A stretch of 63,581 nt of DNA, filler included, from Platydemus manokwari (taxonomy: Eukaryota): assembly GCA_037951405.1 (NCBI GenBank). It is 6 parts of 6 records of this genome, joined end to end, with 100 filler letters (N's around TTAATTAATTAA, not from the genome) between each part and the next. Parts side by side here need not be neighbours in the genome. Positions count along the whole stretch, not along the records: positions 1 to 9,908 come from JBBMOY011190322.1; 5 more parts are not named here. The stretch is one strand, 5' to 3'. Shown one piece after another: positions 1 to 58,210 of the stretch (position 1 is the first letter of the stretch; each line of letters starts with the position of its first letter). The notes under the pieces are model-generated. The model was not told where the DNA came from. It searched no databases and worked only from the letters and a program-made list of their open reading frames with translations. The translations under genes and the position numbers were made by a program.

Positions 1-719
1 CCATTTGGTCTTTCGCATTTCCCGTTAGTTTGCGGGTGGTATGCCGATGTGGTTAGCTTTGTAATTCCGAAAAACTGGTTTACTTGATTTATGATTTGAC
101 TTAGGAATTCGGTACCTCGATCGGTGAGTAACTTTTTTGGTACACCATATCGAAAGATTATTTCTTCGACAAAGATACGAGCTATTGTGTCGGCGGTATG
201 GTTTGAGATTGCGAAAACTTCAACCCATCGAGTAAGATGGTCGCAAAATACTAGAACGAATTTGTTCCCTTGTTTGGTGGTTGGCAGTGGTCCGACGACG
301 TCCATGGCGACAATTTCCATTGGTGCGCCTGGAGTTGGCATTGCCTTCATTGGTACCTTGAATTTCTTTCCTGTGTTCCGTCTGGTTTGGCATACCTTAC
401 ATGTTGTACACCATTCATGTATATCTTTTTTCATATTTAGCCAATAGTATTTTTGTCGGATACGGCTCATGGATTTCCTAGCGGACAGGTGTCCTCCTAA
501 GGTTCCGTCGTGATATTGTAGAAGTACTATGCTCCGTAGGACTTTGGGTAAGACGATGGGATGGTTTGTGTCTGTTTGATACTTTACGATATCGGCTTGG
601 ATAACAAATCTCCCTTGTTCTCCTTTGATTTGTTTGAGCTTTTTGGTTTCTGATGTAAGGTCTACTCGTTTCGTGATTTCTGACCATTGTTTGGTTTTGT
701 CTTCTATTGTTTTCACGAT
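1..719 (-). pseudogene. Integrase (HHCC zinc finger + DDE core), continuing past the window start
   Basis: Reading on in the RT/RH frame past the TAG at 720-722 gives HDGTLGGHL...YYWLNMKKDIHEWCTTCKVC (HHCC), IVAMDVVGPLP (D), LLTDRGTEF (D), TSAYHPQTNGKCER (E). Confidence 0.93.
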
Positions 720-2224
720 CTACATGATGTCATCGTCCTCTTTATGTAATGCTGCTATATCGTATAGGTTACTCAATGTTTGGTTAGCGGTGAGTACAGT
801 TTCTGTGGTGACTTCGTATTCTGTAGGATCGGCTCGGGACAATGCCTCGGCATTCCCGTTGGCTTTACCTTTTCTATAACACAGTTTGATATTGTATTGT
901 TGCAGCTTTAATGTCCATCTGATGAGTCTTGAAGCTGTGTCTCTATGTTGTAAAAACCATTGTAGGGGTTTGTGATCCGTGAGTACGTGTATTTCTTGTC
1001 CATATACGAACGTCCTAAATCTTTCTACAGCGTAGACGATAGCAAGGGCTTCGAGTTCAATTACAGCGTAATTTTTCTCGTGTGTTTTTAGACCTCGGCT
1101 AACGTAGGCTATTGCGTCCTCGTTTCCTTGTTTATCGATCTGTCCTAAGACGGCTCCTATTCCATATCCGCTTGCGTCCGTCATGATTATAAACGGCTTA
1201 CTCATATCCGGATGTCTCAAAATGGGTTCCTTGAGTAGCTGTTCTTTTAATTGGTCGAAGGCTTGCTTCTGCTCCTGTTGCCATTGAAATGGTTTATTCT
1301 TCTGTAACAACGTTGTGAGTGGAAGGGCTATGGCGACGCAGTTCCGTATAAATTTTCGATAGTAGTTGACTAGGCCTAGGAATTCTTGTACCTGTTTCAC
1401 CGTCTTCGGTGGTGGGAATTTGGCTACTTTTTGTGTGTATGCTGGATCAGGTTTTACTCCCTCTCCAGACACTACGTGTCCTAGGTATTTTACTTCTCGT
1501 TTGGCCCATTCACACTTTGTGGGTTTGAGCTTGACCTGCACTTCGATGACCTTTTGTAGTACTCTTTCGATGTCTTGGAGGTGTTCTGTGAGGCCATTAG
1601 AATAAATGATCACATCGTCTATGTAAGTTAGTGCGTGTTGCACGTCCATCAACATGATGTTCATTGCCCTTTGAAACGTGGCAGGAGCTCCAGTGAGTCC
1701 GAATGGCATGACCGTGTACTCGTACAGTCCTTTGCCGTCCGTGAAGGCAGTGATGGGAATTGATTCTTCATCCATCTCGATATTATTGTAACCTGTTTGC
1801 AGATCTAGTGCGGAGAATAGATTTGCTCCTTGTACTCGGTTGACCATATCGTCGATTAACGGCAATGGATAGTTGTCTTTTCTTGTCTGTTTGTTGACCT
1901 TGCGGTAATCGATACACATACGCATGGTGCCTTCTTTTTCTTGACTAAAACGATAGGTGATCGCCAAGGTGAGTTGCTTGGTCTGATTCTCCCTTGATCC
2001 AGCAGTGTTTGAATCTGTGTGGCTATTTCCGTTTCCATGGCTATTGGTGTATGGTAGGCTCGTTGGTCGATAGGGTTTGGGTCCATCAACTCTATCTTGT
2101 GTTTCATAATGTTGCATTTTCCCAGATCGTTTTCATGTCTGGCGAATGCCTCTGGATATCGATTGAGTAATACGGTTAGCTGCTTGCATTGTTCCGGTGT
2201 AATATCCTTGCTTTGGATTCGCAT
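720..2224 (-). pseudogene. Reverse transcriptase + RNase H (frameshifted near 1945)
   Basis: ORF 1856..2224 gives the RT start (GRIRPSNSPWRSPIVLVKKK). ORF 720..2117 continues MRMCIDYRK, LDLQTGY, YIDD (1614-1625), YLGH, then RNase H TDAS, ELEALAIV, TDHKPL, NAEALSR. Confidence 0.96.
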
Positions 2225-2269
2225 AGGCGCGTATAGTTTTCCTGTTCTAAAAGTACTGGTTCGGCTCTA

Positions 2270-2530
2270 AAAGGCTCTACTTTACCAAGTCTGGTGTTGG
2301 CATATAACGTGACAGGACTGTTGTTCACGTTCGCGATTCTGATCGGGATTTTCTCGTCTTGTGCGATGGCGATTCCATTTCCTATGGGTATTCCATATCG
2401 TTGGACAAACTCTTGGCTTGGTTCGAATACCAGTTCGGTTCCATCTGGTTGTGCTGTGTTGGCATAGTATATAGTTTCGATTCTTGGTGGGATTTCTCCA
2501 GTTTCTCCCACATAAATTTCTCTGTCGCCT
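2270..2530 (-). other. Degenerate dUTPase-like beta module between protease and RT
   Basis: IPPRIETIYYA...ELVFEP...GIAIAQDEKIPIRIANVNNSPVTLYANTRLGKVE follows the dUTPase strand pattern (I-x-V-x-x-x-N...I-x-x-G-x-R-I-A-Q-L); no intact catalytic motifs seen. Confidence 0.45.
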
Positions 2531-2589
2531 CGTCTTTTCTGTTTGGCGATGGAAATTAATTTCCCCGTGCTGCAATCGTAAACAATGTC

Positions 2590-2880
2590 TTTCAATTGCT
2601 TTATTGCGTCCTGTCCGACTACACAATGAGTTGGTGCCCACGGTGATACTCGGGCTTCGACGGTTAGCATCTGGTTGCAGATGTGTAGTCTACATGGTAG
2701 TACTCCTAATAGAGGCAGTTTTGTTCCGTTGATTCCTACTATGGGCAGTTGGTTCTCATCTTTAATGAGGTTCTGCATCTCTATGTGGTTTAGTATTTCC
2801 GGTCTGATGATAGTGACATCAGCGCCTGTATCTATTAGTGCCATTACTGAGTGGCGGTTAAGCTTTATCTGCATGAGTCC
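2590..2880 (-). CDS. Retropepsin-like aspartic protease domain inside ORF 2176..3690
   Basis: VMALIDTGADVTII (DTGA at 2821-2832), flap IVGINGTK, and C-terminal CVVGQDAI (ILG-x-D equivalent). Confidence 0.93.
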
Positions 2881-3329
2881 GTTTCGACCTGTACTGGCTA
2901 CGTTGACGTACTCTACCAATCCCCGTTGGTTTTGTCGTTTGATCCTTATGTCATCTTCCTGGTTGTCGATCATTGCCTGTAGCTCCATTGTAGGATAAGT
3001 TTTCCGTTTGTCATTTCCGGATTTCCCTACTGATTCCTTGAATTCCTGATCGTTTGAATCTCCTTGTCTGATTGGTACGTCTGGCTCGACTTGAACTAGG
3101 CGGTAAGGTGGTGCACTGACGGTTGGCTGGTGCCACTGGATGTCTTCCATGGGTATTCGTCTACCTTTTGGTTTAATTCTTTCTGTCCAATTTTTAAAAG
3201 CGTTAGAATATTCTTCATCGCTGTCGTCGTTTGTTGGCCAGGTTGGTTTCCGGATGATGTGTCGCTTTTCCTCCATCCACGTTTTCATTTGTTGTATTTC
3301 CCTTCGGTGTTGTGCATGTATAGAGTGGT

Positions 3330-5150
3330 CGGCGCAAGGTGGACATAGTACCAATAAAATTCTTCTGGTGCATCCGAAGATTCGGTATAATAAAAATGCT
3401 GTCATTGCTCGATGGAACACTACGTATAATAATGTACACGTGACGTAGATGCCCGTGCATCCGGCAAAGAATGTTCCAAACGTCATGAAGCTACCCCAGA
3501 TTTGGTACATGACATTAACGGCGGCTTTCTTGTAATGTTCGGAGGTAAACAGGTTTTCATAGTCTGGCGCACTCCTTGATCTATCATGATAAATTCGTCT
3601 GATTATCTCGGTAATGCCTAGATCCCTTAGTTGCGAAAACATTAACGCTCGTCGTGCATCTTCGATATCTTTAGGATTGTATAGTCGCATGTGAGTTTAT
3701 CAGTTCTAAACTGACACATCCCTCTATTACACTGAGATTTAGTGTCTGCACTGGTAGGTGTGGTAATCCTCTTGATGGTAGTGTCATCCATGAGTTCTTA
3801 ATTTTGTATAGTGGCGCGAAAAATGGGGTGCACGTTCCCTTTGTAGGCTTGGCGTTTGGCTCCAATAATATCCTGGTGATTGGAACCATGTATCTGGTTT
3901 TCCCTTGATACGTGACTTTTAATTCGTTTGTGCATTCGTGCCCGTGTGCCATCATGACTTCTACCTCTGTATAGCGAAACTCGTACCAGACTTCTCCATT
4001 TACCTTGCCATATTGTCCTTTTTCCATGATGATGGGTGTGATTAAGTCTGGGTTGGCTCTGGCAAATAACTAATCGGTTCCGTAGGATTTCTTTATCTCT
4101 TTGGCAAATGGCAATTAGTGTTTCCTGGTAGATCTCGAGTAGCTGTGACTGTAAGTCATGGTAGAGGAAGTCAAATTTATTGTAGCTAGCTAGTTTAATG
4201 TCATTCTTGTGGAGGGTTTGCGCATTTTCCAGCTTTTCCTTGCTGTAATGGACACCTTCGTAAATAGTACTGTATAGTATCGTAGCACACTTCGTGATTG
4301 GTGCTTTGGTTACAAGCCGGATTGCGTCGGAAGACTTGTTTGACATCAGTATTGTAGGTACTGCTCGTTCTTTCACGTTTGAGTGCTCCTTGGCTCCTCC
4401 TAATTGTTTGTTAGTTACTTGGGTGCCTGTTCGTTTCTCATAAACTAGCTTGGTACTAGTTATGGCAATGAATGGTCCGCTCTTCAGTAGCGTTAGTCCA
4501 CAGTGGTCTGCTTCAGGTGGGCGGTAGCTGAGTACTCCCCCATTGACTCTACAATTTCCGTGTCGTAAGTGACACTTTGGGTATTGTGTCATTAATCCGG
4601 TTTTGGCATCAAATGTCGCCTCGAAAAAGTGTAGCTCCACTCGGTAATCTTCATTGGTTATTACCCAGGAGGTAGAGACTCCGTCCCGGAACTTGGTTCG
4701 TCCGTTACATTCTCCATTATGAGCTATTTTTCCACCTCAGGTTACTGTCTCTTGCGTGATCATATTTGGTTCAACTTTTAGGCTTAATTCAGTGTCAATT
4801 CGCAGTTTCTTGGTTACGAATGCACCTTGGCAGTCGGTTGGTGCTATGTTCAGCATTCGTGGGATTAGTTTAGCGTCTAGTATCGCTATTCTACTATGAT
4901 ATCCGCAGAGGTACTCGAAAGTTGCTACCTCAACTCGGCATTCTTGTACCATGGCTCGTATGAAGTCATTTTCTTGGTAGGTGTAATAAGTGTCCGGTTC
5001 ACTTTTCTGTAGCTGGTACGGTTGCACAGATGGGCAATTTATAAAGTCCACTAGAGAGTAGATATTGGATATCTCTGCTTTTCCGTAGTCATAGGCTTGA
5101 AGTAGAGTGGTTTTCCCTATTAGACTCATGATTAGTTGGATTTTGAGTTG
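3330..5150 (-). pseudogene. Chuvirus/Jingchuvirales-like envelope glycoprotein, split by one stop (4737-4739) and two frameshifts (~4045, ~3690)
   Basis: Colinear blocks match the chuviral G pattern as I recall it: AYD(Y) for GYDC; YSLVDFINC; ECRVEVATFEYLCGYHS; GKIAHNGECNG; ASYNKFDFLYHDLQSQLLEIYQETLIAIC; GQYGKVNGEVWY; ECTNELKVTYQGKTRYMVPITRIL; LYNPKDIEDARRALMF; IWGSFMTFGTFFAGCTGIY, followed by a hydrophobic TM segment (3415-3501). Confidence 0.85.
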
Positions 5151-6390
5151 TCCTACTAAATCGTATCCTTGGTTGCTTGGGTCAGCTTTGTCGGTTGCTT
5201 TATGATTTAGGTTTAAGGCGGTCCATCAACCTTTGCCTTCTAATCATTGGATTAGGTATCTTTGGCATGTCTGTGTTGCTTGCATGACGACATCTTTAAA
5301 ATGACTCGGTTCCTGATATGATGAGGTGACGACCTGTTGTATCAGGCATGTGAGGGCTACTTTTACGCGTACCAGTGTCAGCCGTCCTGAGTTAGTTCAG
5401 CTATAATGGTACGTGGGTTGGCATCTCCCTGGTTTAGTATCTGTTTCATCTTTGGCAGGTATCTTTGGATTGCGCGTATAACTCCTTCGTACCCTTCGGT
5501 TTCTCGGTTTGGGATCCGTAAATTATGCGGTTCTAACCCATGTGCTAATGTTAAAAAGATTGTTTTGATATCCGTGTCTCGGGTATCGGGGTTAGCGTCT
5601 GCGATTTTTTTCAGGATTTTCGCCTGGCTTCTGGCGCAAGTTTCCTCTTTTCGTTCCTCCATGAGGGGTGGTACCCTCTCTGAGTTAGGTGGTCTACCTC
5701 TTTTCCGTTTGTTGAACGCTTGTGGTTCGGTTTCTGGTTCGTGCGTGATTTCCATGGTGGGCTCTATCTCGTTTTGTGTTTGGCCTTCTACGGGGATATT
5801 CCTTTCGAATTCGGTGAGGTACTCGACGATTGGTGTGTTTAAAAATGCATCCAAATCGACCTCGTAGTTTGGCTGGATCTCGTTTGGTGGATCCACATTG
5901 ATTGGCTCCATTCCGGGTTCTTCTGGTTCGGGCGGTTTCAGAAGTGTGATAGTGGCTCATTTCCACTGGTCTACCATAGGTACTGGTATTACTTTAGCTG
6001 TGGTGATGTGCCCAGGCAGGCATCCTACATCGACCAAGTATTCATCGTCGTCTACAGGATGTTCCCATATTGCTATGATGAATGGTTCCCGTACGGGTTG
6101 TGCTTTCTTGATGGCGATTCTCAGCCGTTTTACTTTGCAATAAATAGATTGCTGTGTTTCCCATGCTCCGAATTCTGGAGTGTGAGTCTGTATTGTGACG
6201 GAAAGCCGCGACAGTGGGCTGCGCCTCATCAGATGTCCGTTTCTCTGTAGAAGTAGTTAAATTTCTACTTGGTACTCAGAAGGCTTTCTAAGTTGCGTTA
6301 CTAGCATTAGTGTTACTTTTTCTATGACATCGGTTGGCACGGTGACTTGGATTATGTCTCCTAGCATTTTCTTGATCCATGGGGCATCAC
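5150..6390 (-). pseudogene. Uncharacterised coding region X between nucleocapsid and glycoprotein
   Basis: One frame from ~6390 to 5378 with internal stops at 6257-6259 and 5957-5959 joins ORFs 5957..6229 and 5378..5911. A shift near 5390 enters the glycoprotein frame (stops at 5244-5246 and 5226-5228). Contains an acidic Pro/Glu tract and KRKRGRPP. Confidence 0.65.
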
Positions 6391-7520
6391 CCTTTCAAGT
6401 TCCGGTGGTAGACGTTCTGCCTTTTTCTTTTCTTCCTTAGTCCTCTGGATTGTGACAAGGACGTTTTCAGTTGTGATAGCTGTGGTTGGCTCTGAGTCAC
6501 CGGCAAGGTGCTTTTCCTCTGCGGTCATTACTCGGTCAGCTCCTGTGTTGGCTGGTGAAGAGTGACTTCGTTCAGCACCTGTATTGGCTGGTAACGAGTG
6601 GTTTCGTTCAGTGTACTCCGTGACAGGAGTAGTGTTGCTGGGGAATGTTCGGGTTCCATCCCCTTCCTCTTGGTAATAGAACATTAGTGTGACAGCCCTT
6701 GATTTCTCTGGTATGGCGTGTGCCATGAAACATTGTTCCTGTTGGTTGACCCGTTCAATCCTGTGCTTCTCAGCTAGGTATTCCTGTTCTAGCTGCTGTA
6801 GGAGGGTCCTTTGTCCACCAGATGTGAGTTTCTCGGCGGCGATGAACGCGTTTTGCGGTCTGTTTTCAGGTTCCTGGGTCCTCGGGTTGACCCGTTTTAT
6901 GTTACATGTTTTGGCTAGATGTCCATAGCGCTGGCAGTTGTAACACTGTATTTTTCCGACTGTATTGACTTTTTTCTTTTGAAGTTGTGCCTGTTGTCGG
7001 CAAACTTTTCCTATATGTCCTTTTCTGTTCCAAAGCTCACACTGTAGGCTAGTGATTTTGAATGCGCTCGTGATGTGGTTGTTGCGCCCACATCGTTGGC
7101 ATTGTACGTCTTGAATGGACGGTTTTTTAGTCCATGTCCATGCTGTCCGCATTGGAAGCAATTCAGGGTTGGTTTGACTGGATTGTTCCTCTGGTAGTGC
7201 TGTCCCTGTGATTCGGGGATCTGTATGGCTCCTTTTGCTCTGGTAAGACATATACTTATTCTTGATTGACCTTTCCTATTTCGATGAGTCTGGCTTTGCG
7301 TAACAGTTCGTCAAAATCATCTCCCACGTGCAGGCTGAGTGCTGCTCGGATTGGTGGGAGGAACCCTTCCCAGAGTGTGTCTTTTAGGTCATATTCTGTG
7401 TTTGGCGGCCACTCTTCTCTGGGTCCATATGCTCGCTCGGCCAAAATAGCTAACTGGTGTGCAATTCACCGGCATGTTCTTCTGGTAACTGTTTCCTTTC
7501 CATATATTTCGATAGTAGAA
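6361..7520 (-). pseudogene. Gag (capsid C-terminal part + three zinc knuckles), 5'-truncated and frameshifted
   Basis: MHR-like RKQLPEEHAGE/AHQLAILAERAYG and capsid-like LWEGFLPPIRAAL...LLRKARLIE. Knuckles: CQRCGRNNHITSAF (last C lost), CELWNRKGHIGKVC (second C lost), CYNCQRYGHLAKTC (intact). Confidence 0.88.
6536..6607 (-). repeat. 36-bp in-frame tandem duplication in Gag
   Basis: Encodes ERNHSLPANTGA / ERSHSSPANTGA. Confidence 0.85.
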
Positions 7521-9908
7521 GATTATCACGGATCAAGAATCAGTAAATGACCAGTATGATTTTTAAAAGACCCGACAATAAGATAAAATTTTGTAAAATA
7601 CTGATTCATATCATTCACCGTTGTATCTATAACTGCAGAGGTTTGACCACAAAACCTTGAAGGTAATTAGTTTTTCTCCTATAAGTGACGTCTATTTAGC
7701 GTGAGCTTCATCCAGAAATTGTAAGTCTCAGCATAAAGTTCAGTTTATAGTGCAGTGCTGCAATAACTTAATTTTTATCCTTTAATTTATCTTTAAATTG
7801 CATTTGTGTCATTTAGCAATAAAATTTTAAATAAATAACCTTAGTTATTGATTGGTTGGTGATTTTCGATCTTAAATTGTCACTAATCACAACATCAACA
7901 ATCTTGTGGTTGGGACAAAGTCGGATATCATATGAATCGAATTCGATTGAAAATTAAATCAATTCAATAACTAATGCTTCGTAATCAATAAACAAAATTG
8001 TCAGGGAAGTGATAATATTTATCCATTTTCGTCAGATTGAGAGACAAATATAAATGAAATAATGGTAAATCACATTATATCTGGAATAAAATGAATACTT
8101 ATTAAATTATCTACGTCATATTTCGATTCTAATGAAAGTTAATTATATCAAAGAAAGTTAAAGTGCTTCATTAATCCTTCATTAACTATCATAATATGCA
8201 AAATGCTGTCACATTTATTAAAGTACAGTTATAATTTCAAATCTTTTATAAACTGAGATAGTATCATTCAAACAATTAATATATCCACGTGAAACATAAA
8301 GTACACAGTAACACCCTAAATCATACTCAATGTTATTAAAAGCGTTGTTTAGAAATGAACCAATTAATATTTAGGCTATTCATCGAGACTGGGTATATGT
8401 CCCCCCTAATATATGCAAGAATTAATTAGAAATTATTGTAAAAAATTGCCCGAATGATAATCATACGTTGGACAGACTACTTCTGTAAATAGTTTCATCA
8501 CATCAAGGCACTGAATGTCAGACAGATCATTATTTATTAATTAATTACCGTCAGAGAATATAAACAAAATAAATAAATGCTCGCCATGCTGAGATGTGCA
8601 CTTAATATTCACTAAAGTTACAATATAATAAAGTTTTATCTGAAAATTTAACAAAAATATTTACGAAATAAACGATATACATGTGCAGTACTACCAATCA
8701 TTTACTAGATAAAAGCACAAAAATATTTATTTATGAATATATAATATTTCATTTATCCCATGAAATCTGATGTCATTCGTTTTCAAAATTGCACTTTATT
8801 AAACAATCAAATTTTAAACGGTTTCGATATCTGTTGTTCATTGAAGAAATTTATATTTGTAAATAAACGAAGCAGTGATGAACTTAGTTGATGAAAAATG
8901 TTCCCATATTGGAATACAATATGTTACTTTATCAGTCATTAAAATGTGGAACATGAATTGAAGTGATTGAAAGAATATTATCTTTATCCCAAAATACACA
9001 AATAATTATTCACGGAACAAAGTAAAATCAACATTTGATGTGAAAGCGATATTTATTAAAGAAGATCTGGTAATATTGGCTGGATAAAAGAGTCGCTGTT
9101 GAATAAATTGGAATTGATAACTTCAAATGTCCAGACGTTAAATATAATTTTTATGTCCGTGAGGAAGAATCGTTGAACATATAACTGCTGTAATATATTA
9201 TTTCCTATTATATCAGCATTATTGACTTCAGGATAAATCTCTCTGGAGTATGAAATCTGAGAGAAATTCCATTTGTAATGGATTTCAAATTGAGCTACGA
9301 CTATGATAGATGAAAGTGGCTAAATAAGATAATTAATTAAAAATAATAATTATATTATAATTAACTATAATTCGTATATAAAGTACATATTATCAACTTG
9401 TTTGAATAAATGAAAAATATTAAATAAAATTGTCCAAATTTTTTGTTGAAATTCATTAGATGGTGACTTTGTTGGAAATATTTAATTTTAAATTATATTT
9501 TCATGTTTTAGAATCTCAAAGTACATACACACTAGGCTACGCCTTTTAAATAGATTCCGCGCGTTTTATTGTTTTATTCAAATAAACTTTATTATTTCAT
9601 TTTGTTTAAATTCAGTACAGCATATATAGCATAAGTTATACAAATTATTCATATTTGTACTTATATATTTGTAAATAGTATAACGCATTGTTATGCCTTT
9701 CTTTATACATCGTTTCATAAGACTTCACCTTTTGAGTTAGGTTACTAATAATTTTTGGATTAATCATTATGGATTAATGAATTACCATTAGATAATATAA
9801 ACAAAATAATTAAATGCTTGTAGCACTGAGGGTTAAACTCGATATTTATTGGAGTTACAATAAAATAAAGTTTGGTGAGAAAATTTAACAAAATGTTGAT
9901 GATGATGG

Positions 9909-10008
9909 NNNNNNNNNNNNNNNNNNNNNNNNNNNNNNNNNNNNNNNNNNNNTTAATTAATTAANNNNNNNNNNNNNNNNNNNNNNNNNNNNNNNNNNNN
10001 NNNNNNNN
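9909..10008. other. Artificial contig linker N44-TTAATTAATTAA-N44
   Basis: Identical 100-bp structure recurs five times; the 12-mer has stops in all six frames. Confidence 0.95.
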
Positions 10009-12653
10009 AGACATTTTCTTATAGAAAATAATGATAATTTTAATCGAAAATAGATAATTTTAATAAGATTTAGAGAAATTAATTATAAAAAGCGAATATC
10101 AATTAGGAAATTGATAACGTGTTCAAGCAGAAATTATATCTTTAACATCTTGTCAAATTAACGTTTTCTCATTCAGTAAAAATTATTCCATGTACATTAA
10201 TTATTGAGAGAGCTTCACTTTAAAATTCCTATCTTCAGAAATTATTTTTAGAAATCTGTTTCTTGCTGAGGTATTTTTTCAAATGAATATCTTTATTGAA
10301 AAATTACAGTTTTAAATTCAACGCAAAATTAGCGAAATTATCGAATGTGACGTTTATTATTTTGATGTCTGTCATTCCCTTTCAAATGATATTTATCGGA
10401 TTGTTAACAGTATTGGCTTAGCGAAACAAGAAAAAGAGTCATCATGTAAAGACATGTTCTCAGAATAACACATCCACTGGGATTTACAGTTTAGCCTTTG
10501 GTTGCTCCTAATCACGCTGCTGAATTTCATCCAACTGGTGAGTTCGACTTTCCCTGAGAATTAGTTTGATGAAATAATCAGTGTATGACGACGAACTAGA
10601 AAATGGTATGAATTCCTACACAATTTGGGATTGATTCATAAAATTATATTTGTAATCGAAAAGAATTAAGAGAGGTTAGAGATCAATTCTTCTTTTAGAA
10701 CTTGGCAATATTTTTTTTCTTTATCCTTAGCTTATTTTAGGTTGGATTTGTACGGGTTCCACTGATGAGTGGCGTCGATGGATTGTATGGAGCTATTGTA
10801 ACGGAAGTTTTAGATTGTTTTTAAAATATAAACACTGAAAAAGAAACATTCTTACTTGAATATAAGGGCTAATTAAATTTAAATCGCGCTGCGTTACAAT
10901 GATGTTAAATATGAGCTCTCGATAATGAATATTGCCCTAAATAAAAATGCTATATATGAAAACATGTAGTATTAACACACTAGTATATTATGTATTACAA
11001 AAAATAAAAAATCCCAAGTCCAAAAATGAGAGTATTTTTCAATCGATCTTGTTGTACAGGCCAAATCCAAAATCCATTGAAATTGACCGAGGAAATACAT
11101 ATTAACAAACTCACACTTATTGATTGCAAAAAATCTACAAGATTACAATTCCACAAATGAGTTTTGAATAAATAAAATTGTGTTTGTCCCGAGATTGAGT
11201 CGATTAATAAACGCCTGGATCAATATTAAATTGGCTAATTTCTTTTTTGAAAAGATGCCTGTTAGAGACACTGAATATTTGAATATGAATGAAATTGACG
11301 TTGCTTGAGTGAATAGACTACTTTGATTCGAATGCAATGCATGTTAGCCGTATCTACGTCGTTTAAATAATCGAAATTATTGATTTCACTCATTATTAAG
11401 CTTTTATTCAAAATTTATTTCATTAAGACATTACTGGAACGAATTTTTACGAGAGTTTTCAAATAATTGCCATCATTATCAGAATTTGAATTTTTAAATA
11501 AACGTATGATTTATTTAATTTTCATATGACGTTCAAATTTCGTGTCAACAATTCAAAAATTTTAATCACTATTTTAATAGTCTTTATGATTATTTTGTTG
11601 GTAGGTGTGTTGTGTGCTCAATGTACCACTACCTGCTTTCGTTTGTATTTTTTGTGTGGACCACCTCACTAAATTTATTAGGCTTATTATTTATCGTTAT
11701 TATGTGTTTCCTCAATGCACTTGTGATAATTTTTACCTTCGTGGTATTATTTAAATTATTATTGATACATTTATCTTTCCATCAATTTCAATTTCCATTA
11801 AAGAAGATGAACAAAGGTGTAGTCTGACATTCAATACATTACCACATGCTGCACTTCATAAACGATAAATAAAGCAATTGATGGTTATTTGGCCATTAAA
11901 ATTACACGAAATTGATTTGGACTCGAAATGTTTTGGATTGATTAATTTTGTATTGATAAGTTTAAAGATTGATTTAGAATTTACAAAAAAATTTACGGAT
12001 ATTTAAATTTTTAATATCATGATTATCGATCTGCACTGGATCATCACTCAATATAAACACCAATATTAACTCAAAACAATTTCCATAAGTCTGCTATGAA
12101 AATAATGCTGTATTTTTTGTGAGTTCGCTAAATTTTACAGGCTCAATTTAGTTTGCTCGTATCATAAACCGCATTGCACTGCTAGCAACTTATTATAAAA
12201 ATAATTTCGATTTTTACAAAGCTTATAACCTATTGAATTCTCTTTTTCTATTAAATTTTTTCCTTTCATGTATTTTTTCTGTATTTTTTAAGACATTTTC
12301 TTTTATTTCTTCTCGAATCTACGCATTTACTTCAGTTCAGTATGACACTGTAAGAATTAATTCTACATTATTAAAAAGCATTATTCTGTTTTGTATTATG
12401 TGAAAAATTATTAGGATTTATTTAGCATATCTACAAATATATTACTTTGCCGGTATTATAAATATCTGTTTTCTTACAAGGCTTGTAAATTCTTGATAAG
12501 CTTCACCGTTTTTTAAATATTTATTTATTTTTTAAGATTTCATGATGGTTGTAAGCCACTACTATTTAAAAGAACGCATCGAAAACAAACTGTAAAAGAC
12601 TCGACATTCAATTCTATTTAAAGACAATTATTTCAACAAAATAAATAAAATTT

Positions 12654-12772
12654 AATATCAAATAAAATTCAATATCAAATAAAATTCAATATCAAATAAA
12701 ATTCAATATCAAATAAAATTCAATATCAAATAAAATCTAATATCAAATAAAATCTAATATCAAACTAAATTC
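12654..12772 (+). repeat. 17-bp minisatellite (AATATCAAATAAAATTC) x ~7
   Basis: Direct tandem copies, decaying at the 3' end (AATCT variants). Confidence 0.9.
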
Positions 12773-15700
12773 AAATTCAATTTGATATTCTCACAATGGT
12801 AATACCTGATTTTATAATTTTTCATAACTTAATTAATATTGTTGTGTTGGGCATCATTAGGAATCAAGCTTATCACTAATGCAGGTGGGTTCAGGTGTTC
12901 AGAAAAGGTTTAGTTGACTAAATACAGTCTCGATTTATTCAAAATATAAATTGCTCAATTATATAATATTCAATATTTTCCCCAAAGATCGAAACTATGA
13001 TTTTAAACTCAATGAATGCGAAAAGAACGGATTCAATACAAAACAATGTTATTATTATTATTACAATGATGGCGTGATTATTGTAAATTTATGAACAGAT
13101 GAAAATTCTTACAACTTTCCTTACAACTCACCATTTAAGAAAACTAATGGGCGAGCTCTTTGGTAGCAAGAGAGACAAACAATCCTTATTAGTTTCTGAT
13201 ACAAATATAAATTTTAATAATATTATGTCTGACGGCGCTTAAATAGTTCTGTTACAGGGCAGGATCGTCTTCTCAATATCAGCCCTCAGTTTACAAGAAG
13301 ATAGAATCGCAATCTCAAATCCAATCCTCCTATCAAAGCCTGCAACAGTCTCACAAAAAAGCTACAATCCAGATCCTATTGGAAAATGAATATCGACGAA
13401 TAATAACTTCATGTAATCTATCTAGTGTGACTTTACTTTCTATCTTTATTTTATGACTCTTTGTTTGATGTATAATTGACTTTAATTTGTGTGGAAAATT
13501 TTTTAATTTTATTTTAATGAAAAAATAATTGATTTACGAAAAATCGATGTATTTAATTTTATTTTCGATTTGTTTTATGCGGAATGATATAATATATTAT
13601 ATAATATATTATTTAGGCGAGATTTATAATTTAGGAGAAATAGATATTTGTTGAAAAATGTGGGCGGGCGAAAGGGAAAATTGAAATTAATAATGTAGGC
13701 TGATTTATTTTTAAATAAAATTATCAAAGTTGGAAAAAGAAAATAATTTTAAAATCCAGGAAAAGAAAATAATAAAAATTTGATTATTCATAATCAGCAT
13801 AAGGAAAATAGCATATTAGCATCATGTTAGCATTAGGAAAATTAGAAAGTTCACTTACAGAATAATTCTAACGAATTCTTCCTGACACAATTCTGAGACA
13901 AATATTTATTGAATTATTGAACTTCAGTAATAAATTATAAAGTAAATAAATTTAATTTTATGGATAAAGCATTCATATTTACATAAAATCGGAGATATTT
14001 AACATTTATATATCAGCACAAAGGAGGTTCGATATCATGCCCTTCCTTTGTTGACCATTGTTTTGAAAATGCGCGTCTAAATAAACTGTGATTTCGAGTA
14101 ATTGGAAAATTTAGTTTGAGTGGGTTTTCCTTAAAGAGGGAAATAAAATGGTTTATTGCATTGTAGTAAACGACTTTGCACAATTTGGTAAACATGAATA
14201 AAAAATATTGACGTCATTTGTGTTATTATTTTGATTATCATTATAACTCACACATCTACCGGATTGACATCCCGCATCAACCGATAGTACAAGACTCACA
14301 CTAGAAATAAAATATAAGTCAATCTATTGATTAAATAAAATATTATTCGTTTGATGTGCTTGTTTTCTGTCTTACGTGTTAACAAAAAGGTATTCAACAG
14401 TTTCTTATGTGACTTTTAAGTCATCCATCTTCTCTCTTAGAATTATAATTGTCTTTTCTTATCTTCAGGATTTCTTCTAGTTGCTTCCCTTATATCATTA
14501 AATACATTTTCTGTCTCCGGCATAATGACCTCAATTTCTTGAACACATGATCGATTACTATTAAAGTTTCCTTTGCCTGACAAGTTAATGTCTGTCAACT
14601 ATTTTGTAACAGTTCCTTTGTAATTTTCTGATCGATCATGATCTGTACAGCCTGAAAAAGTTTTGATTCCTTTGTATTATGCTTGTGCTACGAATCGACA
14701 GTATTTTCTAATATAATCTGATACAATATAACACGAATTAATGATAAAATACAAAGCCACACATGTATGATGACCCCAAAAATCAATAAAAATATGTAAA
14801 AGAATACAATTAGTTATAAAAGTAAAGTGAACAACAATAAAAATAAAAATGTAATAAGAAAATAAATAATAATAATAATTGGAAATAAAAAATAAATGAA
14901 AATATGTGACATTTAAAACAATATTTAATAATTTTCGTAAATATTAAACTTATTTAATAGTTAGAAGTCGAAAATAACAGTTTTCAGTTATAAACGGAAG
15001 AGAGGAAAGACAATAGAAAAGATTATACTGTGATCTGTTTTAACTACTAAATTAATTACATATTAGCGGTGAGCTAGGACTAGATTCTGTGCTAAAGTAT
15101 TGAGAAGCCGTATTATGAATTTGTCCTAGTTCTATTAAATTAATTTTATATGGGACATATTCCTTTATAATATTGATATTCGACGCAGAGTTTGACTATA
15201 ATATATCTTAATCAGAAGATATATTTGTTTTTGCTCAGTGCGTATTGGAATTAGATTAGGAATCGGATAAAGTAATTCGATTGAGTCTAGTCGTTAAGTT
15301 ATAACAGTTCTAAACATAATGCATAAATATTAAAAATGAAATATATTTAAGTTACAGGTAAATGTGAAATCATAAATACCAGTTTCTTTATCAAATATAA
15401 TCACAACCAACGAGTCAGATAGATAATCATTTCATTAATTAAATCTCTATTAACAAATTATATGTAGAATCAAATCAGATTGAATATATAGTCAAACTAT
15501 TTAAAATTAATCACCTTAAATTATGTTTATTATTCAAATTTTGATTTCGTGATAAATACATTTAAAAATGTTTAAAATATTTTATAATTGTTTAATTTTA
15601 AAAAATTAACCAATTTTAATCTTTAAAATTATTATTAAAATAAATATATTAAAATTATATTATTTTAAAACAACATTACTAGTACTAATTAAATGATTAT

Positions 15701-19534: not shown

Positions 19535-22150
19535 CTATTCTGCACATTTGCCATAACTTTCAGGATAGAGTAAAGTGGGGCCTTTCGATTGTGATTTTTC
19601 GGGTTCACCTTCAATCAATAATCTCAGCTTGTTGTCGGGTGGAGTCAACACGAACAGTCGATTGAAGCGAAGGATATTGTATACCTGAAACAACGGTCGG
19701 CACAGTTATTACAAACGATAAATTAAGATATAATTAACAACACAGATATGCAGTGTAGTGGAAAAGTGTTTCATGGAAAATGATAGGATTAATCTTCTCA
19801 TGGCACCTCAGAATTAATATTGCAATCAATTAAAGTCACTATTTTGCTAGACAAAATATGAACACTTGGTTTATTAAATCACAGTAATACCCCCCCCCCT
19901 ACCAAAACATTGCAATAATAAACCATTTTAAATCGGATTAGTATAGAAAATGCCTATATGACAAACCATTACATGATAATATTATAAAATATAATTAATA
20001 ATTTATCAACAAAAATATAATAATAATTATTAGTACAGATGACAAATAAATATTTAATAATAATATATTAATAAAATAATATATTAATAATATTTATATT
20101 AATAACAATAATAATATAAATAAAAATATAATATAAAATTTGGAGTAAATATACTTTTGCAGCTTGAAGTTCTTAAATACGTTTTCATTTCGTGCTTTAT
20201 TAACTAGTAGCACCTAACAGTGAGGCAAAAATAGAACAAATAATTTTAATTAATCCCACTTTGGTCGGATTGGAATATCTCGGATTTAGACTCTGGTCGG
20301 AGTGCTTTCAAAATTTCAGGTTTTTACTTTTATAATTCATATAAATTTCACAACTTGTCTCGTAGCTATAGTTACTGATGTGTGCATGATCAACATATTG
20401 ATTCTTTTCTGCACATTACACACATACACTCACTGTCGACACGTAGTTTTAATAGAGATTTAATAATAAATGTTATTCAATTATAATTATCAATTTAATA
20501 ATTAGTTTGTTTTAATAAATACATTTTTGAAAAAATGGTCTAATTCGAGTTTTTCCTTCATTTTTCTAAATTTGCGATTGCTTTAGAAGTCTTACGAGGG
20601 TACAGTTTTCCAAAGGTTTATTTCGTCCATTCATTATGGCTGAAAAAGACAGAGATAACGATGGAAATGAATCGGAAGACAAAATTGATGAATTGACAAG
20701 ACCTACGATATTGGAAGTCACGTAAAACAATGTCTTAGGCACTCGCATAAGCCAGAAACGATTGTACATGAAGATGTCAGGAAATTGATATTTATCCAGC
20801 CATACAGAACTGATTAAGTGCCATATTTATCAAATCTGACTCAAGGGGACAGGGCTGTAGTTAATAATAAAATAGAGTCCAGATATATCGAGATTCATAT
20901 TCAGTGTTTAATGAGAACTGAATAAATCAAGAGAGATATCAGATCTAGCCAATCAACATGTAGATATGACGGAATAATTGCTGATAATCAATAATTTTCA
21001 AACATATAATCTGATATTCAGAGATTAAATAAAGCACCGTTTTGTAATCTGGGACATTTTATAGCCCTGACCAATGGCTGTAGTCATAATAGGGCATCGA
21101 TTTCCTTTAAAAAGTAAGAATCACAGATAATTATTAATCATTATCAAAGTAAATGGAGTGAGATTGCGTAAAACGTAAAGCTCAGCTATTCAATTTGCAA
21201 TTGGATAATCTCTTCCATAAAAATGATCGATATTTGATTGATTCCACATCTCATAAAAATGACCAATAAAAATCCTCCATGAATCACCATAGAAACAGTA
21301 ATCAATTATATCAGACTATTGCGATTGAAATCGATATAATATTTTAACAGCTTACAAATTATCCATATCAAAATTTCCTGTCATGGTGCAACAGAAAATA
21401 AAACAAAATTTAATTATATATTTATAAAATATTAATAAATGTGCCAATCTAAATTGATAATAGAATAAAATGTGATAATTTAATAATATATTATGAACAT
21501 TATGCATAAAAATTATCAATCATAATATATCTGATCACAATAAACGGTTACTGCAAAAGCGATTTAAGAAATAGATTTATTTATTTAAACATTTATGAAA
21601 TTAATTAGTCGAATAAATAAGCATTTTAATACAGCAATTAAAATAAATAATTAAAAAATATAAAATAACCTTTTCTGGAGGTAATTTATACAAATCTGCC
21701 AACTCTTCTATGGTTATATCATCTCTATATTTTTCCATCATTTCAATCAAAAGAGAAATCGTAATCTTTCCTTCAGGAATAATAACTGGTTCTACTGCTT
21801 TTTCATTGCTGTTATCATCAAGATCATATGGTAGCACTTTCTAAATTTTCGAAATTAAGACCTTCTAATTGGTTGTACACGCAACAAACTTTTGGTAATG
21901 GACGATTCGATTTAGTTGGCACTCGCTTGCCCTCAATTACTTCTGTGCTACTTATTTCAAATTTATTAATTTCTTCTACTAACTTAACATTTTTATTATT
22001 TTCAATAGATTCAGAAATAAATTCCATTTGTTGAGGAATTTTACTAGCTGAACGAGGTTTTAATTTGTCTTTTTCTATTTGCTTTATTGCTCGATTAAGA
22101 ATATTCCAATTTTTAAAGGGCTTGATAGCCCTACTAGCTACAGCACCCAT
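19535..22150 (-). CDS. NDUFAF4: NADH dehydrogenase complex I assembly factor 4 homolog, 193 aa; exons 22150-21890, 21840-21670, 19684-19535
   Basis: MGAVASRAIKPFKNWNILNRAIKQI (family MGA...N.N+.NRA.+.I), RPLPK, IPEGKITI, ELADLYKLPPEK | VYNILRF. Two phase-0 GT-AG introns (49 and 1985 bp); TAG at 19535-19537. Confidence 0.88.
20600..21350 (+). mobile_element. Possible 3' end of an LTR element (polypurine tract + LTR start) inside NDUFAF4 intron 2, antisense to the gene
   Basis: Purine-rich AAGGGGACAGGG (20843-20854), then one C, then TGTAGT at 20856; locally raised GC. LTR end and TSD not found, so boundaries are approximate. Confidence 0.35.
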
Positions 22151-23304
22151 AAGTGAAAATTAAGTTATTCACAATTTTGAATAATGTTGTAATGTTGTTG
22201 TCAAAAAATATAAAAAAACAAATTGAATCTAAAGCTTTGATATTTGAAATGCTATAAAGAAATTATTATTTAAACAAACTCAATTACATAATATATAAAG
22301 TTATCAAACAAAAGTTGAATTGAAAATTTGTGTATATTAAGCTTCTTCACATATAAAATTAAGTAATATCTATTATGTAAATGTAAAATTAAATAATCAC
22401 ATAAAAATTATGTCGTAAACTCGAAAGTTGTCAAATACTTTTAGTCATATTGTTCACTGGAAAATTCGAATAGTTGTTAACTGAACAGAACATTTTAGTC
22501 TGGTTTTCCTTTAAATGTTGATAATTCTTATTTAACTATTTCGAAATTTTTATTTGCTTTCCACTGGATCTGTGTATTGTTAAACTCAACATTTCGAGCT
22601 CTTCACTTCTTTGTCTAACTTAGCATTAATATTTATCATGTGTGAAGACCTGCATTTTGGTCAACTAGTACATAACGATTATTTATTCGTTTGTAATTAC
22701 CCCATATAGGTTTACCAAAACATTAAAATTTAATTCAAATAACGTATTATTCAATGAATGTTCCAAAAATATACAAGTCGTCAAATAAATTTAGTTCAAA
22801 CTTAAAATCCAAAGATTTTTCAATAAAGAAGAATGAATGAACTTGCATAGAACGCAAGTGTTTTAAAGTTTCTCACTAAGATTTTATGAATATATGTTTA
22901 AACACCGACATTGGGCTTCTAAACTAACAACAATTTTGGCGCAGTTGAAGACAAACTATTTTGGACTCAGTGCTTGAAAGACTTTGTAATATTTTGGCTA
23001 TTATTTTGAAATATGGGATTAAAATAAAAACGACGGTTATCTGCAATCAAATGAAATTTGAAAAACACCTCTCAAGATACAGAATAATATTAAGAATCAT
23101 TAGGTTTTTATTGATGAAGTTCATGGAATTTATATAGCCCGTTATTCACTAGTGATAAAATCAAACTGTTTTCGGGGACGCGCGGACGATTCTTTCCAAA
23201 ACAGGGTATTAAGGGCGATTATCTGACTATTATTGTACTTGAAAGTATTATGTATTGATATAAAGTCATCAGATAAATTTCTGTAACAATTTTTGTTTAA
23301 ATTA

Positions 23305-28074: not shown

Positions 28075-31000
28075 TTAATTGTTGATATTTCCACCTCCGC
28101 CTCGAATTCCTTGGCTGGCTTGTTGTGGTACGGAACCAGCACCTGGAGCATGACCTGCTCGGATTGGTTTGACAATTTGTGGGGCCGGCCCTCTTCGAGC
28201 AAGGTTTCGTTGTCTCACAGCCTCTTTAATTCTATCAACTTCGTGTTGATATCGTCTTCTGTCTCGCATAGCTCCTTCCTTGGCATCTTTCAATGCTGAT
28301 TCAAGGGCCTTGACTCTTTCCGTTGTGCTCTGTAGATTAAAAAAAAGAATTTCAGTATAAAATATTATATTATGATATAAAACTTCAATGATATTCCAAT
28401 GTGTATATATAGTGAGATATTATACAAACTAGATCAATTCTGTGGTATTTATGAATTAAGATTGCGTCAAAAAAGCCATTACAATATTGTCTTAATGATA
28501 AGAATAAGATAAAATTATTATTAAAAATACACAGATGACCAAATGTACAAAATAGGGAAAATTTTTAGTAATTAAGAATGTAATAAAAAATACAAATATT
28601 TCCCGTGTATTTGATAGATAAGAAATAACAATTTATAAATACGTATGTAATCAAATATGAGAAAATGTTTTATTGGACAAATAGAGAATAAAAAGTTGTT
28701 ATAGTTAGGCATCAGATTCAATTCAATGAACTAGATACGTATAATCAATAATAATGCACAAATTGAAGATTCCAAATCCAAAAAAGCTAAAAATCTATAT
28801 ATATGCATGAATCTCATATCAATATAAAATAATATTTCACAGCATGTCATAGAAAATTATAATGGCCAATTGATCAATTCAGATATTATGAACAAATAAT
28901 AAAACAAACTTTTAGTCTCTTTTCCAGTTTTGGTAACTCCAATCTCAGATCGGAATTATCCCTAACTAATTGTTTGTGAACTTTAGTGAGTTGTTCCAAA
29001 TTCATTTCTAGGAATTGAATTTTTTGTTTCTGTACTAGATTTCCAGAACGACTATCATCATCGTCGTCATCCTCTCCAATAATACCAGAATCCCTATTGA
29101 CACCACGTGTCGACTAAAATGATGAACATTTTTAAATGAATTATAAATATAGAAATAATTTTCTTCCAAAAATACCTTTTTCACCCTGTTGCTGAGATCT
29201 TGGACAAATAATTTACGTAAATTATGCAAAGTCTGTAATTCCTTCATCACGGTATCTTCAAGGCCTTTGAGATCTTGTCGAGCTTGTTCTCGCTTTTCAG
29301 CAGCTTTCTCCAGGCCTTCCAATTTTGCTGCTTTTACTTCTCCTTCTGCTACTACCTTTTCATATTCTTCCTTCAATTTCTCGTTTTGAAAGGTCAAATG
29401 ATGAATTTTGCTAAAAACATTAAGGAAAATAAAAATCTGGTGAAACATTTCATTTGAGGATTACTCTTTCATTTCTTCACTCATGCGTTGTTTCTCGTCC
29501 AATTTATCTCTCAGCTCTTTGATCTGCTGAGAATATTGTTCACTTTGGCGTTTGAATTCTTCATCTAGTTTTGACTTGATATCCAATTGTCCAGCGAGTA
29601 TTTCAGCTCGATTTTGAGCATTTGCATTGACGATGAGTTGCTCATTAGCTTTAAATTTGGAAACTTCGGCATTTAATTGATCGACTTGTTCTTCCAGTTT
29701 CCGTTTCTGTGCCTCAGTGTCATCGACTTTGTTGTTAAGTGTGTTCATTCGCACTTCAAACTGATTATCAAAGCATGAGATTCAGATTTATTCGATATAT
29801 ATAATGAATGTAAGTACTTCTTGGACTCGCAATCTCATGTCTCGCAATTCCTCATCGTTCTTTTTCAGGCTTTGGTGTTGTACTGTTCTTTCTTCTTCCA
29901 ACTGTTTAACGCGAGATTGTGTTGTCTTAGCCTCGGTCTTCATTTTGCTGATGTACAATCGGATAACTGTGAATTCCTCATCAATCTTTTCGATTCCAGC
30001 AAAAGATGGTTTCTATAAATCCAAAATTAATTACAATTTAGTTAATTGGAATACGGTTAATATATTTAATTTATCATATTTCTCTTACGCTTAATTGGTC
30101 ACTCATACACTCTCCTACGTCTCCGAGGTCTTTGATCAAGCTATTGAACATTTCTGCATATTTCTTTTTCTGAGTAACATAATTTTCTTTCAATTGTTGC
30201 AATTCATTTTCTTTGCAATTGATGCTCTGTGTTTGCTGATTGAATTGTTCCTGCATGTCTTCTAGTTCGTGGGTTCGATTTTGGATTTCTTGAATCTTTT
30301 GATCATAATTCATTGCTAATTCTTCAAGAGCCTGGAGAACTTCCTTTACTTCTTCTTTACTTGATTCATTTTCACTCTAAAATTTAGATGGTATAAAATG
30401 TGATTAATTTAGTAAATAGTGGGTGAAACTTGTAATCTGTTGAATTCTGCTTGAGTTCTTTCTTGATCTTGTCTGAGACTCTTAATTAATTCATCTTGTT
30501 CTTCAATTTGTTGCTTAAGTCGTTCAACAAGTTGAGCTTGTTTATTAATTTCGTCATCTTTGTCGTCCAATAACCGATATAACTCATTAACCGATGCACT
30601 ATCACCGACTTGAGCTGTAATTTTCACAAACTTTAACAACAGATTTCATCAAAACTATTTTTAAAATATTTAATTTTCAATAGATTTTTCCATGAGAAAG
30701 AAAATTTTCAATGATTAAATCAACACGTAACCCCTCCTCCAGGATCATTTATAATGAATAAATAATAAAACTCGATCTTATAATATTGATATGGTGTATA
30801 ATTCAAGAGTTATTTGATAGAAATATTTCATTACAAAATCAAACCTATGAATCCAATAAAAGATTACCAAATGTTTTAACTGCGATAATGAAATTATTTA
30901 TATTTCAAACAAATATGCAAAACAAATTGTTGATGCCTAGATTATTTATATATTTCAAGCTCAGCTTCGTAATTGCAGCATATTGTGATTAAAATTTGAT

Positions 31001-31734
31001 TAAATATTAATAAGCTAAATAGTTAATGATTATATTGAAGCCTATAGAATAGCTTAGTAACAGATTCATCTTGAAAATGTCAATCAATAGTCAAATAAAC
31101 TTCGAATGAAAACCATAACATATTAATGTTTTCATAAATACAATGAATATTATTGAATAATAAAAGTTAAACCATTGGTAAAATTAACAAACCTGGTCTT
31201 GGTTTTTGACTAGAAACATCAGGATTTAATCTATTTAAACTATCAGTTGATGCAGAAATAGATCCAAATTGGCTATTAGTCATATCTTTCACTTCTTCAG
31301 CTATTTGGTTATATTGTGATTCAGTAAACCATTCACTTTGATTGACCTTTTCACCTGAAAATCAATAATCATTGAATTGTTTAACTATTTGTGTTAATAT
31401 TTAAAAATTATATGAAAGAAAACATATTTTTTAATGAACCTGTTCGCCATTTCTTAATTTCTGCTTCTAAATTGATGATAATGGCTCTTAATTGTTTATT
31501 ACGTTGTTTTTCTTTTTCATATCTTCGTCGCCATTCTTCTGCAGTCAATTCCTCGTTGACACTAACACAATTTTTGATTGTTTTTGCTCTCATACCAAAC
31601 ATCAATGTTGATTTTGTTTCTGCATCATTGAATTCGGCAGGAGAACAGCAAATTACCATGGTGGTTCTTGCATTTCCACCGAGTGATTCTTGGAGAATCC
31701 TAGTTAACTTTGAATCTCGATATGGAATATGAGC
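28075..31734 (-). CDS. KHC: Kinesin-1 heavy chain, 3' part; exons 31734-31440, 31354-31193, 30614-30430, 30376-30089, 30012-29818, 29760-29465, 29410-29176, 29113-28910, 28329-28075
   Basis: [24 protein letters not shown]...[10 protein letters not shown], neck [92 protein letters not shown], tail QIVKPIRAG. All junctions GT-AG and phase-consistent. N-terminal motor exons not found before the linker at 34073. Confidence 0.96.
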
Positions 31735-57655: not shown

Positions 57656-58210
57656 TTACACATTATTTTCGGTATACCATGTTTCAAAATATGGCGCAGG
57701 ACACAGCGCAGGTTTTGATATGCAATTCTTGCAGCAATATGACGTTTCCTTCCGTATTCCCTGTTTATAACATTGTTTACAACGCCGAAAAAATGTTTTT
57801 CGCTGATAATTTTCAGGACGGGAAATTTTCTCAGGAAAGTGCTGTGTTTCATTATAGTTTAATTCATTCGTTTGGATTCGTGCACCTTTAAATGGAACCG
57901 AAGACTTTCCATGCTGTTTATAATTTATACCAGTTAGAGATCGTATGATTGCTTTCCTTCACTGCTCCCTTCGCAACCACTTGCATACTGCTGCAAGTCG
58001 TGTAATAAGTGGAAAACAAAAGTCAACCGAAAGAATTGTTTCCAAAACATTGCACTAGTCTTCTATTTGTACGCCGGTAAATGCACATTTGTGCCGTTAT
58101 AGCCGCATTGTCCAAAAAAGACCGTTTCGTTTTAGACGGCTATTGCCGTCTTGCCATAGAGTGAACTTCGCTTTGACAGTTATAGACGCAAGTGTCCGTC
58201 AACATGTTAA
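57656..58210 (-). mobile_element. piggyBac transposase C-terminal relic (cysteine-rich domain), probably an internally deleted element
   Basis: A minus frame missing from the ORF track reads RKAIIRSLTG...QHFPEKI...RRCKQCYKQGIRKETSYCCKNCISKPALCPAPYFETWY...TAA (57656-57658). TTAA at 58207-58210 is a possible end; the opposite TIR was not found. Confidence 0.8.

Follow-up and report, generated by a model that had tools for sequence, protein, structure and literature searches.

The locus analysed here raises the question of whether an envelope glycoprotein can carry the polymerase of its own element. In a stretch of 63,581 nucleotides from Platydemus manokwari (GCA_037951405.1; six parts joined by filler, the first of which, positions 1 to 9,908, comes from JBBMOY011190322.1), hereafter called the window, a minus-strand frame joins the membrane anchor of a viral-type fusion glycoprotein (G, the Env of a retroelement) to a retroviral-type protease (PR), and with it to Pol. 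A sequence-only reading of this DNA had proposed that the two are fused, that Pol would start on the cytosolic tail of G, and that Pol could be packaged through Env rather than by a Gag-Pol frameshift. That interpretation is partly supported by the analysis reported here. There is very little doubt that the frame belongs to a decayed Ty3/gypsy element, of which it is the still-open portion from Env tail to protease, and that in the family of this element Gag, G and Pol share one frame.

Env tail and protease in one frame

The frame extends on the minus strand from 3696 to 2179, and comprises 506 codons from stop to stop (504 from an ATG at 3690) with no internal stop. Residues 5-144 match the Monjiviricetes fusion glycoprotein family PF24664 (E 1.8e-15, profile positions 478-614 of 653). 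The protease lies at residues 272-369, where Pfam gives retroviral aspartyl protease families, with the DTGA motif at residue 289 (2832-2821); the stop-free passage from the stem of G to the protease was borne out. The linker between the two is open in only 9 of 20,000 base shuffles, and each of the other two minus frames carries 7 stops across it. Upstream of 3690 the ectodomain of G extends to about 5093, and the ATG that had been taken as the start of the open reading frame (ORF) is an internal Met just past a frame break in the ectodomain, not the start of the gene.

From its 5′ end, the frame holds the membrane-proximal stretch of G with a single predicted membrane anchor (3415-3501; hydropathy, a conserved W-G-x-F plus Gly pattern and a helix in the model), a second hydrophobic stretch containing Cys and Pro (3331-3408; crude insertion score, short helices in the model), a charged, largely disordered and predicted cytosolic linker with a conserved Tyr-Pro motif (2887-3330; motif counts, and predicted local confidence, pLDDT, below 50 at residues 177-234), and the aspartic protease (2590-2883; Pfam, and fold matches to the Ddi1 RVP and HIV-1 proteases). 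The anchor does lie where a membrane segment had been placed, but its best core is confined to residues 76-94 (∼3471-3415), 3501-3472 being membrane-proximal. Similarly, the linker of about 150 residues had been described as charged and Pro-rich; it is charged (32% K/R/D/E), but Pro makes up only 6.5% of it (10/155 residues). The frame runs on beyond the protease through a β domain (2263-2529) that had no match in the Pfam scan but whose modelled fold matches human dUTPase (E 6.7e-05) and viral dUTPases. The AlphaFold model of the whole frame (mean pLDDT 77.6; predicted template modelling score 0.38; 91 sequences in the alignment) shows a single long helix at residues 52-107 passing through the anchor, followed by short helices, the disordered linker, the protease fold and this second β domain.

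Sister copies of the element were taken from one public run (X1), in which 113 contigs lie over 2780-3620, none of them covering all of it. Among the 40 of 224 substitutions with the best support, 25 were synonymous, 15 were missense and none generated a stop. In the linker itself 8/15 substitutions were synonymous, against an expected 26%, and every length difference was present at <10% of the local depth. The synonymous bias, together with a frame that is shared by proteins only ∼20-30% identical, shows that the junction is translated under selection.

A HMMER search of 1.84 billion protein representatives rendered 218 matches; from the 150 that were listed, 30 were picked for their length or multiple matches and scanned. 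PF24664 was found in 17 of the 30, and 14 of those 17 also had a protease in the same chain. Gene-caller joins are possible in the long proteins of this set (P-numbers), but four metagenome contig loci found by alignment search (L001-L004) are contiguous DNA and exempt from that problem. Three of the four carry G, PR, reverse transcriptase (RT), RNase H (RH) and integrase (IN) in a single frame, of 3,703 codons in L001, 3,426 in L002 and 2,693 in L004, and the frames of L001 and L004 also include Gag CCHC knuckles. L003 ends within G, and has an in-frame stop (L003:3058-3060) between Gag and the signal segment described below. No Gag-Pol frameshift is needed, as had been claimed, because in the intact relatives a single frame holds Gag, Env and Pol, a basis that the sequence-only reading had not noticed; when three intact frames were scanned for slippery heptamers, matches were plentiful but carried no signal. 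Word-index protein searches for longer proteins rendered 2 weak matches and then none, and neither locus searches with single proteins nor the alignment search of viral contigs gave a match.

A tree of G was built by quick search on the stem and anchor of 47 rows with a long enough match. The window falls in a group of 28 rows (support 94), of which 20 are fused to Pol (a count that includes the window itself and 3 near-duplicates), 3 end a short way past the anchor and 5 are cut short. The other group has 19 rows, 18 of them ending and 1 cut, with no fused row. In the RT tree, the window is in a starred set of 11 rows, together with 7 relatives with Env in frame and 3 fragments that begin downstream of the position expected for G; the window RT is up to 56% identical to those of relatives. 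Three further rows with Env in frame (P0091, P0097 and P0023) fall outside this set, as PMC13524379 reports for elements with the GAG-ENV-POL order. The Env-Pol fusion is a conserved trait of the family, and the assignment of the window copy to this family, with its shared frame, is close to certain.

The element around the frame

Bases 1 to ∼7,560 of the window are a single retroelement on the minus strand, with a GC content of 42-47% as against ∼26% in the remaining window. Pfam matches follow one another, 5′ to 3′, as CCHC knuckle, four PF24664 pieces, aspartic protease, RT, RNase H and integrase. The element is a decayed Ty3/gypsy copy with the order Gag, Env, PR, dUTPase-like domain, RT, RH and IN: Env lies between gag and pol, since the PF24664 pieces stand between the knuckle and the protease, and Pol has the PR-RT-RH-IN order of the gypsy type. 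A probable, broken end of the Gag capsid, at which the element is cut off, lies at 7259-7560; it was recognised by eye from its likeness to the start of P0010, and the Pfam scan of 7259-7465 gave no match. The Gag nucleocapsid region with its CCHC zinc knuckle follows at 6904-7155 (PF00098, E 7e-05; the L001 knuckle region matched by tblastn), and then, in the Gag-Env linker, a stop-broken ubiquitin-like piece at 5960-6388. This piece had no Pfam match of its own, and is 29% identical over 92 residues to a stretch of L003 whose ubiquitin match is below the cutoff (E 0.0002). A signal-peptide-like segment at 5094-5159, in a position shared with the segments of standalone and related proteins, directly precedes the class III-type ectodomain of G (3502-5093; PF24664 on four pieces, collinear tblastn maps to six long relatives), which is broken by a stop near 4739 and by frame breaks near 4060 and 3690. 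Beyond the dUTPase-fold domain come RT and RNase H at 894-2260, with frame breaks near 2240 and 1940 (PF00078, PF17917 and PF17919; tblastn maps), and, after a stop at 722-720, the zinc finger and core of the integrase at 3-719 (PF17921 and PF00665; stop map).

The integrase is truncated by the window edge and the 5′ portion of gag is absent; no 5′ long terminal repeat was seen, nor any long repeat pair at the 5′ end of the element within the window. Past ∼7.6 kb, GC falls to the host level and the depth of related copies drops from hundreds to ∼14. Between 7260 and 720, the stop map and the tblastn maps to long relatives revealed at least 11 stops or frame breaks, so the window copy is non-functional in its present state. 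Four of these breaks coincide with sites at which other X1 copies vary in length, which is consistent with decay of the window copy.

Several relatives show features of their own. P0006, a knuckle-Env-Pol polyprotein of 2,627 residues that is recorded under a bacterial genome bin as a hypothetical protein, is probably a mis-binned animal retroelement. P0023 is a chain of 2,430 residues with Gag, signal, ectodomain, anchor and Pol; its ectodomain had no PF24664 match, and could represent another type of envelope, or a more remote one, within this layout. The window has one protease, while 2-5 tandem protease-like domains lie between the anchor of G and RT in P0003, P0009, P0010, P0027, P0153, P0156, L001 and L002; that these might allow single-chain dimers on a trimeric Env is speculation. 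In all seven close relatives with a complete end, the integrase is followed in the same frame by a cassette that opens with a second signal-like segment and continues through a small ectodomain and a Thr-rich stalk to an anchor, a region before which the window ends. Such cassettes, after the integrase or in mid-chain, were located at L001:10006-10923, L002:4751-5314 and 9050-10039, L004:7694-8506, and at the C-ends of P0003, P0006, P0153 and P0156; the similar mid-chain cassette of L002 was modelled as a β sandwich (pLDDT 56), for which fibronectin type III domains ranked first in the fold search (best E 7.9e-04). A separate downstream ORF with a weak match to RNase T/DEDD exonucleases was seen at L001:12085-13470 and L002:10617-12104.

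Predicted path of the chain across the membrane

In 14 relatives, an internal hydrophobic segment is placed 10-25 residues upstream of the glycoprotein's first conserved Tyr/Phe-Asp-Cys, and the N-terminal signal peptides of 5 standalone G proteins occupy the same place. The window counterpart (5159-5094) is a decayed, weakly hydrophobic version. At the other end of the ectodomain, a crude insertion score computed for 17 sequences (L004, which is without the anchor motif, was left out) had a mean of 0.1 for the anchor and of 4.5 for the second hydrophobic stretch, which also contains internal Lys/Arg and Pro; the latter is predicted to lie on the membrane without crossing it. Hydrophobic segments before RT are even in number in 6/6 close relatives with an N-terminal part, L002 and P0153 having an extra pair. 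The density of glycosylation sites did not separate the predicted luminal parts from the cytosolic ones. The simplest reading of these predictions is that Gag is cytosolic, G luminal and Pol back in the cytosol. They support the type I topology that had been put forward for G, in which its cytosolic tail leads into Pol.

Gag would accordingly be synthesised in the cytosol, after which the internal signal segment would thread G into the lumen of the endoplasmic reticulum, and the single anchor would bring the chain back to the cytosol, where PR, the dUTPase-like domain, RT, RH and IN would fold. From what is generally known of signal peptidase, cleavage would be expected to leave Gag on a signal stub and Pol on the tail of G, in equal amounts, so that both would gather on the same face of the membrane; Pol would then enter the budding particle with Env until the protease releases it. 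We think it probable that, once the internal signal peptide has been cut, Pol remains attached in this manner to the cytosolic tail of G. The packaging of Pol through Env would be a sound inference from this topology, and hinges on that cleavage.

The Tyr-Pro motif of the linker (2997-2980 in the window) was found 22-65 residues before the protease motif in 14/17 sequences, compared with 53/634 background windows, and near the C-end in 8/18 standalone glycoproteins. Because it is also present near the end of standalone G proteins, it likely shows where the retained tail of the captured glycoprotein ends. We presume it to resemble YPxL late domains and YxxPhi sorting signals. Its use as a cut site for the protease was also considered and ranked lower, since those 8/18 glycoproteins carry it with no protease following. 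A broader proposal would have Pol packaged as the cytosolic tail of G, Tyr-Pro acting as a budding or sorting signal, and the relatives extending the design with tandem proteases and fibronectin type III-like signal-plus-anchor cassettes; as a whole this is possible, if somewhat doubtful.

Other accounts of the frame can be given. The signal anchor might remain uncleaved, in which case Gag, G and Pol would form one two-pass chain, Pol would be packaged with Gag, and Env would be a membrane loop. Other single-frame gypsy elements package Pol with Gag, and a single frame does run from Gag to IN in L001 and L004. In PMC13524379, two arrangements are described for gB-type ectodomains: a signal peptide on one side and a membrane domain on the other, or a membrane domain on each side. 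We nevertheless consider this account unlikely, as the segment agrees in length, position and small-residue ending with the signal peptides at the N-terminus of standalone G proteins. Slightly less likely again is that the long frame is one output among others, a spliced or internally started message that skips env supplying Gag-Pol, with Env-Pol as a minor form. Splicing is common in env-bearing retroelements, but the synonymous bias of the linker and the conserved shared frame show a junction translated under selection, with which a second message would still be compatible. It is very improbable that the second hydrophobic stretch, conserved and hydrophobic by eye, crosses the membrane and leaves the protease in the lumen: its score is at least 2.8 in 17/17 sequences, too polar to cross, Lys/Arg and Pro interrupt it, and RT and IN, which must be cytosolic, lie downstream in the same chain. 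The many frame breaks of the window copy could also suggest that its decay accidentally joined separate env and pol frames. This is the least credible account, and is largely refuted: many distant relatives and three contiguous DNA loci carry the fusion too, and the X1 copies have no common length difference between anchor and protease.

Several observations weigh against a conserved fusion with Pol tethered to G. In X1, the linker of one divergent contig carries a net frame shift and three contigs show deletions, while the absence of stops in X1 rests on the best 40 of 224 substitutions and on contigs that do not span the whole stretch. The trees of G and RT are quick searches, the support of 94 for the window group of G is below the starred level, and three rows of that group (P0025, P0036 and P0132) end 37-41 residues past the anchor region, at true stops or contig ends. 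The topology comes from a crude in-house hydrophobicity score rather than from SignalP or DeepTMHMM; L004 and P0097 have an odd number of segments, with a second hydrophobic stretch before G. Finally, the in-frame stop of L003 stands before the signal segment, at a stretch through which the relative P0008 reads; decay is a simpler reading of this stop than readthrough.

If the predicted topology is true, Pol would reach the particle covalently joined to Env rather than to Gag, unlike in retroviruses, and Env and Pol would be produced one to one with no recoding. It would also bear on how the in-frame capture of a single gene may turn a retrotransposon into a virus-like element.

Other window features and known systems

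Outside the element, the window resembles AT-rich animal genomic DNA. It contains host kinesin exons at 28075-31734 on the minus strand (heavy-chain-like by eye; PF00225 at 31411-31734), a host exon at 21824-22159 on the same strand with a UPF0240 match (E 5.7e-07), and a Cys-rich minus-strand frame at 57656-57958 with no significant Pfam match, which we presume to resemble the end of a piggyBac-type transposase. A 17-base tandem repeat of ∼11 units lies at 12609-12795; elsewhere in the window, N gaps inflate other repeat calls.

Env in frame between gag and pol was presented as a first such case for the planarian gypsy-like Burro/GYPSM1 elements (Arkhipova and Yushenova 2019, PMC6431247). The Env of Burro, with matches to mononegaviral fusion glycoproteins, has its counterpart here in the Env-PR frame of the window and the Gag-Env-Pol frames of L001 and L004. 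Burro also has a dUTPase-like domain between PR and RT, found in the window by fold search, and a ubiquitin/SUMO-like piece upstream of env, for which the window offers only the piece tied to the sub-cutoff match of L003; decayed copies of Burro are known, and the window copy is likewise decayed. In contrast, Burro has a frame of 4,873-5,140 residues with MATH, BCL2, BIR and ankyrin modules in an element of >30 kb, whereas knuckle to integrase spans ∼7 kb in the window and none of the 10 pieces scanned had a Pfam match to MATH, BCL2, BIR or ankyrin. The window element is not a giant Burro. PMC6431247 makes no mention of a signal peptide or of topology.

A closer likeness is to the GAG-ENV-POL elements with gB-type Env reported from nematodes, bryozoans and flatworms (Chary and Hayashi, PMC13524379). 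Gene order is shared with the HSV/gB-type errantiviruses of the Platyhelminthes C1a group, and the env type appears to be shared as well; the broken window ectodomain has its PF24664 matches and, by eye, matches the C1a rows. Closest to the window G is Smed_errantivirus_4 of the supplement, with domains I-II sharing motif after motif, by eye only. The elements described there are intact, unlike the window copy, and passages of the preprint speak of three ORFs, its text having no occurrence of 'polyprotein' or 'in-frame'. It also cites nematode endogenous retroviruses with Env before pol (Sacco et al. 2022). The window element very likely belongs to the GAG-ENV-POL errantivirus group. The nematode retroviruses just mentioned reportedly have a continuous gag-env-pro-pol frame and are said to be restricted to nematodes.

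A single polyprotein is also known in Atlas virus (Belpaoviridae), in the order Gag-Pol-Env with Env last (PMC9094657; bioRxiv 10.64898/2026.03.22.711591). Its Env is of class II, phlebovirus-like and C-terminal, so that Pol stays joined to Gag, and its RT motif is YVDN (PMC9094657). Env follows Pol in the Belpaoviridae, with YVDN in the nematode members, whereas in the window Env precedes PR and the RT motif is YIDD. The tethering of Pol to Env was not found stated in PMC6431247 or in the part of PMC13524379 drawn on here, and may be covered, as topology, in Sacco 2022, Grohme 2018, or figures and supplements. With the fusion layout already published (PMC6431247, PMC13524379), the window copy alone adds little, and the new contribution lies in the predicted topology, which would place Pol on the cytosolic tail of Env.

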